NCBI GenBank assembly: GCA_048940645.1
Contig: JBHLOI010000067.1
Location: 1 to 16,696 of the forward strand
Source of the DNA: Promethearchaeota archaeon
Lineage (GTDB): Archaea; Asgardarchaeota; Lokiarchaeia; Sigyniarchaeales; SOKP01
Direction of reading: 5' to 3'
DNA: 16,696 nt
Shown: positions 6,651 to 14,757 of the stretch, one piece after another
How positions within the stretch are numbered: position 1 is the stretch's first letter
Layout of the letters: each line of letters begins with the position of its first letter
The notes under the pieces: model-generated
Told to the model about the DNA's origin: nothing
The model's database searches: none
What the model saw: only the letters and a program-made list of their open reading frames with translations
Translations under genes and position numbers: made by a program

Positions 6651-6965
6651 ATGAATAATAATTCTGATCAAACTTCTTGTTGTGACTCTGTAGATACAAA
6701 ATCAGGATGTTGTAATATTGAATCAGTGGTAACCGTTGATAATAAAGGCCAAATCTATCTTTCAAAAGAAATTAGAGACAAATTTAACATTGAAAAAGGA
6801 GATAAATTAGTAGTAGTTAGTATGTTTAAGGATGGTTTACCATGTTGTATGAACTTAATCAAAGCAGACTCTTTTGGAGGTATGGTTCGAAGATTTCTCA
6901 GTCCTGTTATGGAGGAAATAATACAAGGTAATAATATACAAGAAGTTGAGAAAAAGCGTATTTAA
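6651..6965 (+). CDS. hgcC: Cys-rich AbrB/MazE/SpoVT-fold protein, HgcAB-associated HgcC-like
   Basis: AbrB core VVTVDNKGQIYLSKEIRDKFNIEKGDKL, flanked by GCCNIESV and KDG.PCC..LIKAD as I recall for the HgcC family. Three vicinal Cys pairs. Confidence 0.75.
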   Translation: MNNNSDQTSCCDSVDTKSGCCNIESVVTVDNKGQIYLSKEIRDKFNIEKGDKLVVVSMFKDGLPCCMNLIKADSFGGMVRRFLSPVMEEIIQGNNIQEVEKKRI

Positions 6966-6993
6966 ATCTATAAAAAATAATGAGGTAAAACCT

Positions 6994-7878
6994 ATGGTAG
7001 AATTAGATGATGAAAAAATAAGAAAAATAGTAAGAGAAAGTTATGGAAAAATAGCAGATCGAAATAAAGGATATAGCTGTTGTTCACCTTCTTCGAGTTC
7101 AACTCAAACTTCTTCAAGTTCTTGTTGTGGAGATGTTAGTCTGACGCAAAACTATAGCTCTAGAATTGGTTATTCTGAAGAAGAACTTAGAAGTGTACCT
7201 GAAGGTGCAAATTTAGGGTTAGGATGTGGAAATCCTACTGCACTTGCTTCTATAAAAGAAGGAGAAGTCGTTGTAGATCTTGGCTCAGGAGCAGGTTTTG
7301 ATTGTTTCCTTGCAGCAAATAAAGTTGGAAAAAGTGGTAAAGTAATTGGAATTGATATGACTGCACAAATGATTGATTCAGCTCGAGAAAATGCTAAAAA
7401 AGGTGATTATGAAAATATTGAGTTCCGACTCGGTGAAATCGAAAATTTACCAGTCGCTGACAACACCGCTGACCTTATAATTTCAAATTGCGTAATTAAT
7501 CTTTCTCCAGATAAAGAAAGAGTGTTCCATGAAGCTTTTCGAGTTTTAAAATCAGGAGGTAGAATGATGATTTCTGATATCGTTTTAACAGAAGAATTAC
7601 CATATTTATTAAAGCAGAATTTAGAGGCATATGTTAGCTGTGTATCAGGAGCCCTTCTAAAGGAAAAGTATATCAGCATCATCCAAGATGTTGGATTTCA
7701 AAACATCGAAATAGTGGGAGAATCTTATTTTCCAATCCAATACATGATAACAGATCATAATGTGAATGAATTCAAGGATAAATTTAATTTAACTCCTGAA
7801 CAAGTTGAAGAAATTCGGAACTTCAATGGTGCAGTAATAAGCTTGAAAGTTAAGGCATTTAAACCTAATAATAATTAA
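6994..7878 (+). CDS. arsM: Arsenite S-adenosylmethionine methyltransferase
   Basis: VRESYGKIA, N-terminal CC pairs, GANLGLGCGNP, SAM motif VDLGSGAGFD, ISNCVINLSPDK and SCVSGAL (catalytic Cys set present). SD GAGGT at 6982-6986 favours ATG 6994 over TTG 6946. Confidence 0.95.
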   Translation: MVELDDEKIRKIVRESYGKIADRNKGYSCCSPSSSSTQTSSSSCCGDVSLTQNYSSRIGYSEEELRSVPEGANLGLGCGNPTALASIKEGEVVVDLGSGAGFDCFLAANKVGKSGKVIGIDMTAQMIDSARENAKKGDYENIEFRLGEIENLPVADNTADLIISNCVINLSPDKERVFHEAFRVLKSGGRMMISDIVLTEELPYLLKQNLEAYVSCVSGALLKEKYISIIQDVGFQNIEIVGESYFPIQYMITDHNVNEFKDKFNLTPEQVEEIRNFNGAVISLKVKAFKPNNN

Positions 7879-7900: not shown

Positions 7901-8046
7901 AAAAATGTATCATTAAAAAGCTAATTTTTAGACCAAAATTGAGAATATTTTAATTCCTAAAATTTTTTTTCTTAACCTCTTCATAAACTTTTATAAATTG
8001 ACAGATTCTATTCTATAATTATTGAGTGAATAGTAAGTTGATAAAT

Positions 8047-9576
8047 ATGTCATCAAAAGAAGAAGCATATAAGGAAATTGAAAATATTGTAGGTTCACAA
8101 TATATTTCTAATAAGGATTTTATGAAAGCTGCTTATTCGAGAAATGTTGACCCTGCATTTCCCGATAGATGGGCAGATATGATTGTAAGGCCAGAAACCA
8201 CCGAACAAGTTTCTGAAATCGTAAAGGTTGCAAATAAATTTAAGATTCACATGGTTCCAAGAGGAGGTGGAGCAGATTTAGTGGGTGGCTCAGTAACAAA
8301 AGGAGGGATTCTGATCGATCTCACCAGAATGAATAAAATTATTGAAATCAATGAGACTGATTTTTATTGTGAAGTTGAATGTGGAATTACATGGGGAAAT
8401 TTAGTCTCAGAATTACACCATAAAGGTTTAACAACGGGTGTTCTTGGTCCGGGAAGTGGTTTTTCAGCAACTATAGGTGGTGGCCTTTCAAATAGTACTG
8501 CTGGTTTTGGTTCCACCAAATATGGGGTTGTGCCTGATATTTGTTTGGGAGTAGAAGTAGTTTTACCTAATTCCCAAGGTACCATTATAAGAACTGGCGC
8601 GGCAGCTAATAAATATGCCAAGTCATTCTGTAGATATGGCGTCGCTCCTGATTTTACTGGACTGTTTATGGGAGATGTGGGCACAATGGGCATTAAAACT
8701 AAAGCCTTTTTAAAATTGTTTCCAAAAACTCCTTATAAAGCACAAAGATATTATATGCTTAATAAAAATGATTATAATAAAGTTGTAGAGTTGTTATATA
8801 AGTTAAGGAAAGAGGTTCGGGATGGATTGCACGATGTGCTGGTAATCCCTTTAGCCTTATTACAGATCTTATCTATGATGGTTGAGAATAAACCTGCTAA
8901 AAGAGCAAGATTAAAAGGACCAGTTTTTTCGATCTTGGTGGAAGCAATGGATGAAGATATCTTGGAACTACATCTGAGAAAAGTTTCCAAAATAATGGAA
9001 AATGATACTAGACCATTTGAATACCAAGAAATGGACTTAGATGCACCACTCTCAAAAGATTGGAAGTTCAGCTTAAAGTATGCATATAATTACTTTAATA
9101 AATATATCTCAATTGTACCACCCAAAATTTCTTGTACAACATGTCATAAAATTCCTATCTCAGAAATTCCTGAAGCGGCAAAACTAAGTCATGAATTTGA
9201 TATTAAAAATAAAGGGGAATTTCCATCACAAAGCATCTCTTTATTTGCCACAGTTATATTTCTTATGCCGAATGGGCATTGTGTGATTGTAGGAGGATTT
9301 AATGCTGATAATGTAGATGATCAACGTCAAATCTCAATGAAGATGTGGCACAAAAAATTAAGAAATCAAGTTCGGTATGGTGGGGTTCATTATTGGCTGG
9401 GGGAGGCTATTTCCCAATCAATAGTAGAAGCTGATGCTTATACTCCCGAATTTATACAATTTTTTAAAGATATGAAAAAAACAGTGGATCCTAATTTTTT
9501 ATTAAGCCCAAACAAATTCCATATGTATAGTTTTAATGATGATATCACAAAGTATATAATCAAAAATGATAAATAG
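8047..9576 (+). CDS. FAD-binding oxidoreductase, VAO/PCMH family (GlcD / D-lactate dehydrogenase-like)
   Basis: IVRPETTEQVSEIVK.A, VPRGGG..L.GG, IDLTRMN, ATIGG, G..GTMGI.TK and C-terminal K..VDPN.LLSP.K. The ORF track starts at GTG 8026; ATG 8047 is more likely. Confidence 0.9.
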   Translation: MSSKEEAYKEIENIVGSQYISNKDFMKAAYSRNVDPAFPDRWADMIVRPETTEQVSEIVKVANKFKIHMVPRGGGADLVGGSVTKGGILIDLTRMNKIIEINETDFYCEVECGITWGNLVSELHHKGLTTGVLGPGSGFSATIGGGLSNSTAGFGSTKYGVVPDICLGVEVVLPNSQGTIIRTGAAANKYAKSFCRYGVAPDFTGLFMGDVGTMGIKTKAFLKLFPKTPYKAQRYYMLNKNDYNKVVELLYKLRKEVRDGLHDVLVIPLALLQILSMMVENKPAKRARLKGPVFSILVEAMDEDILELHLRKVSKIMENDTRPFEYQEMDLDAPLSKDWKFSLKYAYNYFNKYISIVPPKISCTTCHKIPISEIPEAAKLSHEFDIKNKGEFPSQSISLFATVIFLMPNGHCVIVGGFNADNVDDQRQISMKMWHKKLRNQVRYGGVHYWLGEAISQSIVEADAYTPEFIQFFKDMKKTVDPNFLLSPNKFHMYSFNDDITKYIIKNDK

Positions 9577-9587
9577 GTGGGTAATTA

Positions 9588-10802
9588 ATTACTGAATTTA
9601 ATCCAAAAGAAAAATTTAAGCATTTAAGTAAATTTGGTAACCTTCTCCTTCAGTGCATAAGTTGTGGTGATTGCAGAGAAGCTACAGATTATACGGCAAA
9701 TCCAGCAAAATGGGGTGTATGCGTAGCCAGAGATCATACCTCTGGCTTTGAACCCTTTTTTGGAAGGGGAAAAATGCAAATTATTCGATCACTTTGGCAA
9801 GGGAAATTGGAATTAAGCAGAGATATGGCAGAAGTCATTTATCAATGTCCTACCTGTAATGCTTGTACAGAAGCATGTGCTTATGAAATGGATAATGCGC
9901 TCATGTATGAAGCTCTACGGGCAGAATTAGTCGATGCCGGTTGTGGGTTAGAAGCACACATTCCAATGAATAAAGCTATGGTCGAGTTGCTAAATCCCTA
10001 TGAGCGTGATAATAAGCAAAAAAACGAGTGGGTCAGCAAATTAGATTTCAAAATCAAGGATGCGTATTCTGAAAAAGCAGATGTATTATATTTTGTTGGA
10101 TGTACAGCTGCTTTGACTCCCTTAATCCAAACTGTGGCAATAAATACAGCTAAGATTCTTAAAAAATTTAATGTTGACTTTGCAATATATGGGGAAAAAG
10201 AAATATGTTGCGGAAGTGTCGCATTAAGAACAGGAAATAGGGATGCATTTAATTCTGTTACAATTAACAACTATGAATTATTCAAAACGAGTGGAGTTAA
10301 AACAATCATAACAAGTTGCGCTGGTTGTTTTAGGACTTTAAAAGTAGACTATGCTGATTTTCTTGAAGATTTAAATATTGAAGTACTACATACAGCGGAA
10401 TTTATTAGAAATTTTATTGAAAAGAATGACATTGAAATGAGAAATTTAGGTATTAAGGTAACTTATCACGATCCATGTCATACGGGAAGAAATATTGGTG
10501 GTATACCTCTTTATGAGGCACCACGAGAACTAATAAGCAAAATTGCGAATTTAATTGAAATGAAAACAATTAAAGAAAATACAAAGTGCTGTGGTGCTGG
10601 TGGTGGTGTAAAGAAAGGATTCCCGGATCTAGCTTTAGAAATAGCTAAAAGTAGGATAAGAGAAGCAGAAGAGACTGGAGCAGATTATCTTGTTAGTATT
10701 TGTCCTTTTTGCTATAGAAATTTATCTGATGCGATTCACGCTCTCAATTCAAATCTTATAATGGCGGATTTGACCGAATTAATTTATAAAGCTCTAGATT
10801 AG
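9588..10802 (+). CDS. (Fe-S)-binding protein, GlcF/HdrD-like: two ferredoxin-type motifs plus two CCG domains; probable ATT start
   Basis: The frame is open from 9585. CISCGDC...C lies upstream of ATG 9774, followed by CPTCNACTEAC and the CCG motifs EICCGS/TSCAGC and YHDPCH/KCCGAGGG/ICPFC. SD-like AGGTGG at 9575-9580. The product call is firm; the start is uncertain. Confidence 0.88.
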   Translation: MTEFNPKEKFKHLSKFGNLLLQCISCGDCREATDYTANPAKWGVCVARDHTSGFEPFFGRGKMQIIRSLWQGKLELSRDMAEVIYQCPTCNACTEACAYEMDNALMYEALRAELVDAGCGLEAHIPMNKAMVELLNPYERDNKQKNEWVSKLDFKIKDAYSEKADVLYFVGCTAALTPLIQTVAINTAKILKKFNVDFAIYGEKEICCGSVALRTGNRDAFNSVTINNYELFKTSGVKTIITSCAGCFRTLKVDYADFLEDLNIEVLHTAEFIRNFIEKNDIEMRNLGIKVTYHDPCHTGRNIGGIPLYEAPRELISKIANLIEMKTIKENTKCCGAGGGVKKGFPDLALEIAKSRIREAEETGADYLVSICPFCYRNLSDAIHALNSNLIMADLTELIYKALD

Positions 10803-10903: not shown

Positions 10904-12748
10904 TTGTCATTAAAAACAATTTTTAAAAACATTATTAAAACATTTATTATAGGGACTGTAATTTTATTTGCGGGGCTAATTCTTACCTTTATACTTATGA
11001 ATCTCCTCCCAATAGATCCAGTACTAGCACATTTACCGCAACTTTTTACTCCTGAACAATATCAAGCAATGGCAGATCACCTTGGCTATGATGAGCCTCT
11101 TATTATACAATTTTTCATATTCCTTGGTAATTTTCTTACTGGAAATTGGTATAGATCGAGTAACATTTTACCTGGTATTCCAGTTACTGATTTATTGGTC
11201 GGAAGCGGAAGGCTTCAAAGAACCTTTGAGGTATTACTATTACCTTTAACAGTTGGAGCAATTGCGGGAATTTTGATTGGTTTAATCTCAATTAAAACTA
11301 GAAAGAAATGGCTAAAAATAATCATTCAAATTCTTAATGTGCTTGGTTACGCTGTGCCTGTAATATTCCTTGTGTTATTTTTCCAATTTGGAGCTTTCAT
11401 GTCGGGAAACTTGCCCACTTATGGATTTAAAAACATGGCTTATGGTGATCCGCCTTTTGTTACTGGCTTTCGAATATGGGATTCCATACTTGCAGGACGA
11501 TGGGATTTAGCATTTGATACAGCTCTCCATTACATTTTACCAGGACTTGTATTAGGCTTCACGATATCAGCCCTAATAGTAAAGCTTGTTCGTATAAATG
11601 CAGTGAATAAGGCCCAACGAACCTCTATAATATATAATACTGCCAGGATAGCTCTAATTTTTGGTTTAATACTTGGTTATGCGATATTAGTAGGTTATAT
11701 GTTTAACTTATACGAATTCGGTAAATTATTTGTAGATGCTCTACAATCGCAAGATTATTATGTAATTCAGGCATGCCTCTTTGTAGTTATTATCACTATT
11801 GTTTTGGTGACATTTGCCGCTAATATAATATATAGTATATACCATCACATGGTCGAAAAAGAAATATGGCCTACAACATGGATAAGAAAAGAGAAAATTT
11901 CACAGAAGGAAAATTCGAATGAGCTTAGCAGTAATGTAGAAAAAGAAAGAAACCCCAACACTTTCAAAGATTTTAAGTCATACTTTATTAGAAAACTAAA
12001 ATCCCCATTAACAATTATTGGATTAATATTCTTTCTTTTTTTTGTAGTAATTTCGATTGTTCCTCAAATAATAACTCCATATAGTCTTACTGAAGCTGTA
12101 AGTGCTTATCCAGATCCATGGATACCACCTTCTCCAGGGCATCCCTTTGGAACAGGATACCAAGGGCGAGATATATTAGCACTTGTGGTGTACGGCATTC
12201 AAGATGCATTAATTTTTGGCTTTTTAGTTGTTCTTATAGGAGTTGGTGGGGGTCTACTCTTCGGATTTTTCGCAAATAATCGATTTTATGATAACAAATT
12301 CCATAGATGGTTCGGTAGATGGGTAATTATGGGATTCCTCTTACTATTTTACATAATGCCTTTCTTTTTTCTTATTCCAGTGATCACGACTGCTTTTGGG
12401 TTAACTTATTTGACTTTCTTAATCATTATTGGTGTAATATTAATCCCGTTATTTACATGGATATTTGTCAGAACTGAATATAAAATTTTTGAAATTCTAA
12501 AAAAATTGATTATTTACATACCTTTATTCGTTGGATTTGCAACATTAATTTATGTTTCATTAGGTTTCTTAGGATTCCATGATTCCAATATAATCCATCA
12601 ATTAGGTAATACCATTGATCTTGGAAGAACTTATTTACTTATTGCTCCTTGGGCAACACTTATACCTGCAATATCCCTTTTTCTTTTAACTTTGGGCTTG
12701 TTTCTAATATACGAGGGATTTCAAGATCATGTAAAAAGAATAAGGTAA
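10904..12748 (+). CDS. Fused DppB-DppC (peptide/nickel ABC permease-derived) membrane protein, apparently lacking EAA loops; paralog 1
   Basis: DppB-type P.DPV..LG.D.PL..Q, TGF..DS...G.W...HYILP and QDY.VIQ. DppC-type PPSPGHPFGT...GRDIL and APW...P. TTG start with GAGGGTG SD. Confidence 0.85.
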   Translation: MSLKTIFKNIIKTFIIGTVILFAGLILTFILMNLLPIDPVLAHLPQLFTPEQYQAMADHLGYDEPLIIQFFIFLGNFLTGNWYRSSNILPGIPVTDLLVGSGRLQRTFEVLLLPLTVGAIAGILIGLISIKTRKKWLKIIIQILNVLGYAVPVIFLVLFFQFGAFMSGNLPTYGFKNMAYGDPPFVTGFRIWDSILAGRWDLAFDTALHYILPGLVLGFTISALIVKLVRINAVNKAQRTSIIYNTARIALIFGLILGYAILVGYMFNLYEFGKLFVDALQSQDYYVIQACLFVVIITIVLVTFAANIIYSIYHHMVEKEIWPTTWIRKEKISQKENSNELSSNVEKERNPNTFKDFKSYFIRKLKSPLTIIGLIFFLFFVVISIVPQIITPYSLTEAVSAYPDPWIPPSPGHPFGTGYQGRDILALVVYGIQDALIFGFLVVLIGVGGGLLFGFFANNRFYDNKFHRWFGRWVIMGFLLLFYIMPFFFLIPVITTAFGLTYLTFLIIIGVILIPLFTWIFVRTEYKIFEILKKLIIYIPLFVGFATLIYVSLGFLGFHDSNIIHQLGNTIDLGRTYLLIAPWATLIPAISLFLLTLGLFLIYEGFQDHVKRIR

Positions 12749-12753
12749 AATTC

Positions 12754-12764
12754 TTTTTTTTTTT
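12754..12764 (+). terminator. Oligo-T terminator between the permease paralogs
   Basis: Run of 11 T starting 6 nt after the stop. Confidence 0.5.
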
Positions 12765-12900
12765 AATTTCTTCTTGTTTTTCATTTGCTTTTCCAAGTAA
12801 GTCTCTTAACTTTTTATAAAAGTTAGGAATTATTTACAAAAATGTTTAAATTTATGCTTATCTTAGTGATTCATCGTCTGATTAAAAGGCGAAAATAATA

Positions 12901-14757
12901 TTGCCAAGAATACCTAATATTGTAAAAAACATCTTAAAATCGTTTATTATAGGGATTGTAATTTTATTCGGAGGATTAGTTATTATCGCTAATCTTGTAA
13001 GATTATTCCCGGGAGATATAGTAGCATCATATTTACCAGCACGTGCCACCCCAGAAGAATATTGGGCGAAATATTATGAATTGGGATTTCATCTACCGTT
13101 ATGGCAGCAATTTTTTTTGTTTCTTGGTAGGTTCTTTACTGGACAATGGGGATTTTCTATAAATGTTGCTAGAGGTGTGCCAGTTATTGAGTTAATAGGA
13201 GGGGGAAGGATTCAACATACCCTTGAAGTATTACTATTACCTTTAACAGTCGGGGCAATAGCGGGAACTATGATTGGTTTAATCTCAATTAAAACTAGAA
13301 AGAAATGGCTGAAGAGAATTATACAAATTCTTAATGTGCTTGGTTATGCGGTTCCTGTAATATTCCTCGGGCTATTTTTCCAATTTGGGGCTTATTTGTC
13401 GGGAAACCTGCCTACAATGCATTTTAAAAACCCTGCTTACCCTGATCCACCTTTTGTCACGGGTTTTCGAATATTGGATTCTCTAATCTCAGGGCAATGG
13501 TATTTAGCATTTGATACAGCTCTTCATTATATATTACCCGGACTTGTATTAGGGTTCACGATATCAGCTTTAGTAATAAAGGTTATTCGTATAAATGCAG
13601 TAAATAAAACAGAAAAAACATCTATAATCTATAATACTGCTAGGATAGCTTTTCTTTTTGGTTTAATATTTAGTTATGCTATGTTGGTAGATATGATATT
13701 CAATTTATTTGGTTTTGGGAATCTAGTTTTAGAAGCAATAACTGGCCGTGACTATAATGTAATTAAAGGATGTCTCTTTGTAGGTCTCATCATTATAGTT
13801 TTGGTAGCATTTACTTTTAATATAATCTACTGTGTTTACCACTATATGGTAGAAAAAGAAAAGTGGCCCACAACGTGGATAAGGAGGGAAAAAACAGTAC
13901 AAAAGGAAGGCTTGAATACTTTTAACCAACCATCAAATAACCCTAAGGTGAAGGAGAGAAATCCTAACTCTTTCAATGATTTTAAAGCATATTTTCTAAA
14001 AAAACTAAAATCTCCATTAACAATTATTGGATTGATATTTTTCCTCTTTTTTGTATTAATCTCTATCTTCCCCCAAATATTAACTCCTTATAGCATTGAA
14101 GAAGCAGATGCAATATATGAAATATATTGGACACCACCCTCCCCAGCTCATCCATTAGGAACCACCTATATGGGGCGTGATGTTCTCGCACGTGCAGTGT
14201 ATGGCATACGGGAATCATTAATATTTGGATTTTTAGCCACTCTTATAGGAGTGGGTGGAGGTTTACACTTTGGATATCTTGCTAATAACAAATTTTATGA
14301 AAGGAAATACCATAAATGGTTCATTAGATGGGTAATTATGGGATTTATGTTGCTTTTTTACTTACTTCCTATTCTTCTTTTTCTAATCGCGATAACAAGT
14401 ATTTTTGGGAGGGAATATACGATCTTATTAGTATCTAGTGGTGTATTATCAATCCCGATATTTACGTGGATCTTTGTTAAGACTGAATATAAAATTTTTG
14501 AAATCCTTAAAAAAGTGATTATTTACATACCGTTATTCGTTGGATTTATCATCATTATTTATAATTCATTAGGATTTATAGGATATAGTGATCCAGATTT
14601 TATTCAATTGGGCATGGATATCAGTAACGCTCGAGGGCATATTTTAATGGCACCTTGGGCTGTATTATCTCCAGGAGTTGCTTTTTTTCTTTTAACACTG
14701 GGACTATTCTTTTTGCATGAGGGATTCCAAGATTATCCTAGACATTCAAGGTATTAG
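12901..14757 (+). CDS. Fused DppB-DppC (peptide/nickel ABC permease-derived) membrane protein, apparently lacking EAA loops; paralog 2
   Basis: Colinear paralog of 10904-12748: PGD..., LGF..PLWQQF, HYILPG, RDYNVI, PPSPAHPLGT...GRDVLAR.VYG.R.SL and APW...PG. TTG start. Confidence 0.85.
   Translation: MPRIPNIVKNILKSFIIGIVILFGGLVIIANLVRLFPGDIVASYLPARATPEEYWAKYYELGFHLPLWQQFFLFLGRFFTGQWGFSINVARGVPVIELIGGGRIQHTLEVLLLPLTVGAIAGTMIGLISIKTRKKWLKRIIQILNVLGYAVPVIFLGLFFQFGAYLSGNLPTMHFKNPAYPDPPFVTGFRILDSLISGQWYLAFDTALHYILPGLVLGFTISALVIKVIRINAVNKTEKTSIIYNTARIAFLFGLIFSYAMLVDMIFNLFGFGNLVLEAITGRDYNVIKGCLFVGLIIIVLVAFTFNIIYCVYHYMVEKEKWPTTWIRREKTVQKEGLNTFNQPSNNPKVKERNPNSFNDFKAYFLKKLKSPLTIIGLIFFLFFVLISIFPQILTPYSIEEADAIYEIYWTPPSPAHPLGTTYMGRDVLARAVYGIRESLIFGFLATLIGVGGGLHFGYLANNKFYERKYHKWFIRWVIMGFMLLFYLLPILLFLIAITSIFGREYTILLVSSGVLSIPIFTWIFVKTEYKIFEILKKVIIYIPLFVGFIIIIYNSLGFIGYSDPDFIQLGMDISNARGHILMAPWAVLSPGVAFFLLTLGLFFLHEGFQDYPRHSRY

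Follow-up and report, generated by a model that had tools for sequence, protein, structure and literature searches.

The stretch analyzed here is the complete 16.7-kb contig JBHLOI010000067.1 of a Promethearchaeota archaeon (16,696 nt, contig C6, hereafter the window; G, C and L numbers are our handles for genomes, contigs and loci). It derives from a genome of 3.83 Mb with about 30% G+C that is 89.6% complete. We identified two co-directional genes on it, separated by 152 nt and 64–65% identical to each other, that each encode a DppB-like and a DppC-like permease of ATP-binding cassette (ABC) peptide importers fused into one chain, with the EAA loop missing from both halves. The features of the two genes are as follows (TM, transmembrane helix; ORF, open reading frame).

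10904..12748, + strand: gene 1, fused DppB-DppC-like permease of 614 aa, TTG start, both EAA loops missing (ORF, Pfam/NCBIfam domains, AlphaFold2 model, Foldseek)
11006..11209, + strand: gene 1, B half, first outward loop, residues 35–102, homologous to the DppA-docking scoop motif region of DppB (alignment)
11591–11626, + strand: gene 1, B half, shortened loop (alignment)
11606..11626, + strand: gene 1, B half, 7-residue turn between TM4 and TM5, residues 235–241, in place of the DppB coupling helix (phmmer, model, alignment)
11858..11998, + strand: gene 1, cytoplasmic linker between the B and C halves, residues 319–365 (model, dN/dS)
12470–12505, + strand: gene 1, C half, shortened loop (alignment)
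12470..12484, + strand: gene 1, C half, 5-residue turn between TM4 and TM5, residues 523–527, in place of the DppC coupling helix (phmmer, model, alignment)
12901..14757, + strand: gene 2, tandem paralog of gene 1, 618 aa, TTG start, both EAA loops missing (ORF, domains, alignment)
13006..13206, + strand: gene 2, B half, first outward loop, scoop region (alignment)
13588–13623, + strand: gene 2, B half, shortened loop (alignment)
13603..13623, + strand: gene 2, B half, equivalent short turn replacing the EAA loop (Pfam match, alignment)
14479–14514, + strand: gene 2, C half, shortened loop (alignment)
14479..14493, + strand: gene 2, C half, equivalent short turn replacing the EAA loop (alignment)

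As delineated with Pfam and NCBIfam, each ORF consists of a DppB-type half (residues 1 to ~318) with the domains BPD_transp_1_N and BPD_transp_1, a cytoplasmic linker of ~45 residues, and a DppC-type half (residue ~366 to the end) with OppC_N and a permease core. The linker sequence is not conserved across the fused family, and in the structural model of gene 1 the linker is disordered, with a predicted local distance difference test score (pLDDT) below 50 at residues 325–346. Both fused genes and their orthologs in three other genomes (G099, G141, G121) start with TTG. This is probably the true start, because the first internal methionine would cost TM1, and the conserved weak start codon may result in low-level translation.

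The loss of the EAA loops is clean in all four halves. Aligned to the canonical, separately encoded DppB and DppC of the same genome (contig C68), the DppB half has a single gap of 23 residues and the DppC half a single gap of 25 residues, each placed exactly over the EAA loop, and the same 23- and 25-residue gaps were found when distant members of the fused family were aligned to these two proteins. The first-pass annotation, which was made from the letters and their ORFs, had placed the deletions in the same four loops, with coordinates that agree with the shortened loops listed above, and had judged by eye that about 20–25 residues were missing from each. In phmmer searches against solved structures, each half matched in two blocks that flank the EAA loop: query residue 234 was paired with residue 229 of Escherichia coli DppB and query residue 236 with DppB residue 254, and in the C half query residues 512 and 529 were paired with OppC residues 174 and 216, such that DppB residues 230–253 and about 25 residues of OppC/DppC remained unmatched. 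Likewise, the Pfam BPD_transp_1 match of gene 2 skipped profile positions 80–105, with only 3 residues between positions 79 and 106.

An AlphaFold2 model of gene 1, built on an alignment of 56 family sequences, was confident (pLDDT 89.1, predicted template modelling score 0.90) and had short turns at both sites, in the B half between TM4 (residues 200–234) and TM5 (242–267) and in the C half between TM4 (502–522) and TM5 (528–555). The model contained no under-membrane helix in either half that could represent a cryptic coupling helix. Foldseek searches with this model retrieved DppB/OppB chains with TM-scores of 0.69–0.75 and DppC/OppC chains with TM-scores of up to 0.79, from E. coli and Mycobacterium tuberculosis transporters. 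The proteins thus have the DppBC fold in one chain with both coupling helices excised. In the structure of DppBCDF, the coupling helix between TM4 and TM5 mediates each contact between a transmembrane domain and a nucleotide-binding domain (NBD) (PMC12136057). With both of these helices gone, the fused proteins should therefore not be drivable by the NBDs DppD and DppF in any known, canonical manner.

The deletions are a property of an entire family. An exhaustive profile-free search yielded 81 clusters (50% identity) at E < 1e-30, below which scores dropped to those of ordinary DppB. All 56 full-length relatives examined share both deletions. Their B loop spans 51–61 residues versus ~78 in canonical proteins, and their C loop mostly 24–29 residues versus ~51, with 30–44 residues in the most divergent members. 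Close homologs carry the names of Loki-type Asgard archaea (Promethearchaeota/Lokiarchaeota), and a distant member is encoded by the cultured Candidatus Lokiarchaeum ossiferum (locus NEF87_001678). The model of this L. ossiferum homolog (pLDDT 81) has a 9-residue turn in the B half and a 5-residue turn that joins extended TM4 and TM5 in the C half, and lacks a coupling helix in both halves. Among 151 genomes of the phylum, in which many matches at E < 1e-30 were canonical DppB proteins aligning only as far as the deletion point, full-length matches were present in about 11 of the 13 genomes of the window's own genus (counting G000) and in a single genome each of a sister genus and a neighboring family, and none was found with this query in 124 genomes of other families. 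The fused family is thus narrow, Loki-specific, and almost confined to one family of Lokiarchaeia. Nothing relevant to orphan permeases or to permeases that lack the EAA loop was found in the literature searched, and a look-up in the ESM Atlas returned ordinary BPD_transp_1 clusters only. Long open frames that were considered as canonical fused DppBC intermediates with retained EAA loops proved to be separate dppB and dppC genes.

The ratio of nonsynonymous to synonymous substitution rates (dN/dS) of the fused genes ranged from 0.19 to 0.32 overall, with values of 0.19–0.29 between gene 1 and its orthologs and 0.30 between genes 1 and 2. The segments from TM4 through the turn to TM5 had values of 0.13–0.32 and the linker of 0.13–0.19. 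Control genes compared at similar dS between this genome and G099 had ratios of 0.06 (canonical DppB), 0.11 (DppC), 0.13–0.15 (DppD/F) and 0.30 (substrate-binding protein, SBP). The fused genes are therefore maintained by selection, although they evolve faster than canonical permeases. Together with the family-wide sharing of the deletions, this bears out the first-pass annotation, which had ascribed the loss to selection rather than decay.

Relative to canonical DppB and DppC, the fused proteins are best conserved on the outside of the membrane. Alignment columns were divided into outward loops and membrane helices according to the topology of the gene 1 model, with the following amino acid identities.

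Gene 2, B half versus own canonical DppB: loops 73%, helices 27%
Gene 2, C half versus own canonical DppC: loops 69%, helices 33%
Gene 1, B half versus own canonical DppB: loops 49%, helices 29%
Gene 1, C half versus own canonical DppC: loops 45%, helices 25%
Canonical versus canonical, Loki paralog: loops 52%, helices 65%
Canonical versus canonical, bacterial DppB: loops 35–41%, helices 36–38%

Pairs of canonical proteins thus have the opposite pattern, with helices above loops, or no bias. The scoop-region loop by itself is 48% identical to the canonical DppB of the same genome in gene 1 and 68% in gene 2, where the flanking helices reach ~30%. A second, independent strong match was found in genome G113, in which one copy of a tandem pair (G113a) shares 75% of loop residues and 31% of helix residues with the canonical DppB of G113. 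The loops of G113a are only 50% identical to the DppB of the window's genome and 51% to those of gene 2. The remaining lineages have identities to canonical proteins of 43–58% in the loops and 26–35% in the helices, and the bias of loops over helices is therefore general in the family. Recent gene conversion as the source of the loop similarity was rejected, as synonymous sites are saturated. Between the loops of gene 2 and their canonical counterparts dN is 0.21 and dS is ~2 for the B half and 0.9 for the C half (a noisy estimate from 64 codons only), and at conserved residues loops and helices have about the same proportion of identical codons. With dS this high and these codon fractions, the similarity is held at the protein level.

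Phylogenies of the two column sets conflict. Helix columns recovered the fused proteins as a single clade (support 100/99), in which gene 1, gene 2 and their orthologs form an inner clade (100/100). Loop columns placed gene 2 with the canonical DppB of its own genome (95/77) and G113a with the canonical DppB of G113 (96/87). In approximately unbiased (AU) tests, monophyly of the fused proteins was rejected with the loop columns (p = 0.001), and the loop-based groupings were rejected with the helix columns (p = 1e-120 and 4e-6), the groups having been named after the trees were seen. Quick trees of the C half showed the same conflict between loops and helices. This mosaic origin fits both ancient, selection-filtered conversion and differential rates after separate, independent origins. 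In either case, the outer face must be kept by selection like that of the resident translocator. In known Dpp systems, the binding protein is the only partner that touches this face, and the first outward loop of DppB carries the scoop motif (PMC12136057). Since the outer face of gene 2 closely matches that of the resident canonical DppBC, it most likely receives the same family-5 binding proteins, and docking of such proteins has probably been retained by the fused proteins in general.

Neither binding proteins nor ATPases are encoded next to the fused genes. The window contains no ATPase (NBD) or SBP gene, as the first-pass annotation had stated, and in the survey of homologs that it had proposed, no dppD/F or SBP gene adjoined the fused genes in the ~12 contexts examined. 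In the window, the fused genes are directly preceded by genes for an FAD-binding oxidase and a CCG protein and followed by FTR1 and GDT1, and the other neighbors are unrelated (PNPOx-like, MarR, GNAT, hydrolase, acetoacetate decarboxylase, ArsM-like methyltransferase). Genome G121 is syntenic with the window and holds a single fused gene. Other contexts differ and include ATP-citrate lyase with isocitrate dehydrogenase, a large surface protein, ABC exporter half-transporters on the opposite strand, and an orphan canonical dppB (G109, G057). A protein of ~980–990 aa encoded upstream of three family members was considered as a conserved partner and rejected: two of the three are mutual orthologs, in the window's own genome its homologs are encoded on contig C104, which has no fused gene beside them, and the neighbor in L. 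ossiferum is unrelated. Canonical dppC or dppB genes with an EAA motif stand alone among unrelated genes on contig C40 of the same genome (L023:6161-7171) and in G109 (L041:10865-11884) and G057 (L042:4844-5863), and in the latter two the orphan dppB adjoins a fused gene without EAA loops. Because these same genomes scatter canonical dppB and dppC as orphans, little can be concluded from the missing linkage.

A single complete canonical operon is present in the genome, on C68, that encodes an SBP, two small unknown proteins, DppB, DppC, DppD and DppF and holds its sole DppD/F pair. In total, nine SBP_bac_5 domains (contigs C28, C11, C46 and C68; loci L012–L020) face a single canonical DppB, two copies of DppC and one DppD/F pair, and two of these domains are part of a single open frame of 2167 aa on C28. 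The two small genes between the SBP gene and dppB (L022:4104-4961, 285 aa; L022:4973-5428, 151 aa) have no Pfam match. Genes of the same size occupy this position in G099 and lie upstream of dppB in G147 and G071, and the C68 pair may represent extra components of the Loki Dpp system. An M28 peptidase gene adjoins the canonical dpp operon. Peptidase genes also recur, no more than a few kb away, near fused genes from different lineages, namely a C25 gingipain-like protein of 1193 aa in G057 (L042:229-3810) and M29 aminopeptidases near two homologs (L024:5221-6330; L026:5822-6931).

Two further observations concern the neighborhood in the window. The FAD_binding_4 oxidase (8026–9576) and the CCG-domain, GlcF/HdrD-like protein (9774–10802) form a pair that is syntenic with the fused gene in G121 and may be a D-lactate or glycolate-type dehydrogenase; a functional link to the permeases is not evident. 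A small MazE/AbrB-like ORF (6651–6965) overlaps by 20 nt with the start of the gene for an ArsM/UbiE-type methyltransferase (6946–7878), the N-terminal stretch of which is rich in Ser and Cys.

The reading that we rank first, and hold tentatively, is that the fused proteins provide an ATP-free peptide path beside DppBCDF that is fed by binding proteins. The fused protein would represent a complete Dpp/Opp-type translocator core in one chain from which the two coupling helices, the sole canonical docking sites of the ATPases, have been excised. A liganded binding protein would dock at the retained outer face and pass its peptide to the core, which would let the peptide move down its gradient without ATP, and cytoplasmic peptidases would keep this gradient directed inward. 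For a peptide fermenter starved of energy, this would offer a cheap means of uptake alongside the ATP-driven DppBCDF. Transport itself and its direction are speculative parts of this proposal. An ATP-free path is attractive for a syntrophic peptide fermenter with a cultured Loki relative in which a family-5 SBP was the most abundant protein detected (PMC11284389). The nine SBP_bac_5 domains beside a single canonical DppB and DppD/F pair, and the peptidase genes that recur near family members, also count in its favor.

Several points weigh against such a path. Known type I importers need ATP-bound NBDs for opening of the SBP and for the switch to the outward-facing state (PMC12136057), and the cycling of a core without a motor would be hard to account for. 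Divergence from the canonical proteins is greatest in the helices that line the pathway (TM5 and TM6 in the B half, TM3 and TM4 in the C half), a pattern that would fit a loss of the canonical translocation path. Furthermore, the strong loop match (≥70%) is limited to two lineages, the others having the 43–58% given above, and no context examined has a binding-protein gene adjacent to a fused gene.

The same divergence of the pathway helices, together with the better conservation of the outer face, favors a second reading, in which the fused proteins do not transport at all and instead form a docking platform for liganded binding proteins. Such a platform might sense these proteins and signal by way of the linker, might compete for them with DppBCDF as a brake or decoy, or might anchor them at the cell surface. 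There is precedent for such sharing in E. coli, where DppA serves both DppBCDF and the chemoreceptor Tap. A third class of membrane proteins without a motor, encoded on contig C73 of this organism, carries the same scoop region on a very different body, which also favors a platform. Helix identities of 74–92% within sub-clades, however, are higher than a mere anchor would need, and the linker is disordered and not conserved family-wide, with no linked signaling domain or partner gene. On balance we consider a docking platform possible and rank it close behind the ATP-free path.

The C73 locus (L021:2115-13763) itself comprises four tandem genes for proteins of 720–1035 aa with no ATPase gene nearby. 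One copy has a match to Pfam 12TM_1 in its N-terminal part, and copy 1 has a weak, split BPD_transp_1 match only. Neither the EAA motif nor the second outward loop is present in the C-terminal DppB-like domain of copy 4, the scoop region of which closely resembles those of canonical DppB and gene 2. The same binding-protein-facing module is thus displayed by several motorless membrane proteins of this organism.

Besides a role as a receptor, the first-pass annotation had proposed an ATP-independent facilitator or channel. Independence from canonical NBD coupling is retained from that proposal, but a free-standing facilitator or channel on the permease fold, working without any binding protein, appears improbable to us. 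It would agree with the lack of a nearby SBP or NBD gene in the contexts examined and with helices that are far from canonical yet conserved within clades, as for a new pathway. It offers no account, however, of the outward loops being conserved best, nor of their match to the resident canonical DppB in two lineages and the significant conflict between the trees. Because the outer docking face is the best-kept part and has this match, a binding-protein-dependent role is, on the comparisons made here, more likely than a free-standing channel or facilitator.

Just as improbable is that the fused proteins are still driven by ATP, with DppD/F or an unrecognized ATPase docking on another cytoplasmic surface such as the linker, the loop between TM2 and TM3 or the C-terminal tail. 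Scattered ABC genes in Loki genomes mean that absent linkage says little against this, and among close relatives purifying selection acts on the linker. Against these points stand the reduction of both docking helices to turns of 5–9 residues in every member, a linker that is variable family-wide and modelled as disordered, and the fact that coupling without an EAA helix is not known from any type I importer (PMC12136057). That genes 1 and 2 are decaying, functionless dppBC duplicates is very improbable, as their faster amino acid change than in canonical DppB/C and variable genomic context are outweighed by intact frames in ~80 clusters, the low dN/dS, identical clean deletions kept family-wide, and retained tandem duplicates.

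With regard to known systems, the fused proteins belong to the Dpp/Opp permease superfamily by descent, without its defining functional feature, the EAA coupling helix. They share with DppB/DppC and OppB/OppC (TC 3.A.1.5; DppBCDF 8z1v, OppABCD 8j5q) the homologous fold of both halves, the six-helix topology, the N-terminal scoop region and the OppC-type outer loop, and their nearest relatives are the canonical Loki DppB/DppC (35% identity, E 5e-51). They differ in being a single chain with both EAA helices deleted and no linked NBD, and in having helices of 25–35% identity with the outer loops kept. The whole-protein scores against Pfam BPD_transp_1 (PF00528) are 27.9 and 32.9 at a cut-off of 26.4, and all NCBIfam equivalogs are missed by a wide margin (best scores 93–95 bits, cut-off 350). 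An annotation as plain permease subunits of ABC transporters should therefore be avoided. We know of no type I importer that couples without an EAA helix.

Other systems resemble the fused proteins in one aspect each. FbpB of the ferric importer FbpBC (9j4r; a weak Foldseek match at rank 22) also has two BPD_transp_1-type halves per polypeptide, but keeps one coupling helix per half and works with an NBD dimer; the fused proteins have neither coupling helices nor a linked NBD dimer. In the tripartite ATP-independent periplasmic (TRAP) transporter DctPQM and the tripartite tricarboxylate transporter (TTT) TctABC, a high-affinity extracytoplasmic binding protein feeds an ATP-free, ion-coupled membrane component. 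The likeness is an analogy in the proposed logic only, with no relationship in sequence or fold: the fused proteins have no Pfam or NCBIfam match to DctQM or TctAB, their fold is DppBC-like, and no coupling-ion site was identified in them. Solitary BioY, an S-component of the energy-coupling factor (ECF) class, is the membrane part of an ABC-type importer that is found and apparently used without an ATPase. BioY is of a different fold and class (ECF/type III), binds its substrate itself without a binding protein, and is not known to have lost a defined coupling element. In the pairs DppA-Tap and MBP-Tar, one binding protein serves a transporter and a chemoreceptor, which is unrelated to the translocator; here, the second partner would be a derivative of the translocator. 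None of these systems combines the aspects that they share individually with the fused proteins.

The coupling helix is regarded as indispensable in every ABC importer of type I, and a family under selection has dropped both copies and kept the face for the binding protein. The fused family is real, reproducible across its members, and unexplained by the current mechanism of ABC transporters. It raises the question of which functions an importer core is capable of once the motor is gone and is a natural test object for the share of the alternating-access cycle that resides in the membrane domains and binding protein alone. The homolog in L. ossiferum makes expression and localization accessible to test. 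If the fused proteins are decoys or sensors, they would represent a new way of regulating ABC import. The family sits in the archaeal lineage closest to eukaryotes, in which peptide uptake is central to physiology. A bolder view, which we put forward as doubtful but possible, is that a type I importer core has shed its ATPase and now serves as an ATP-free, SBP-fed peptide path, its outer face matched to the binding proteins of DppBCDF. This would be an energy-saving adaptation of Loki archaea, which live close to the thermodynamic limit, and the first case in nature of an ABC importer membrane domain that works without NBDs.

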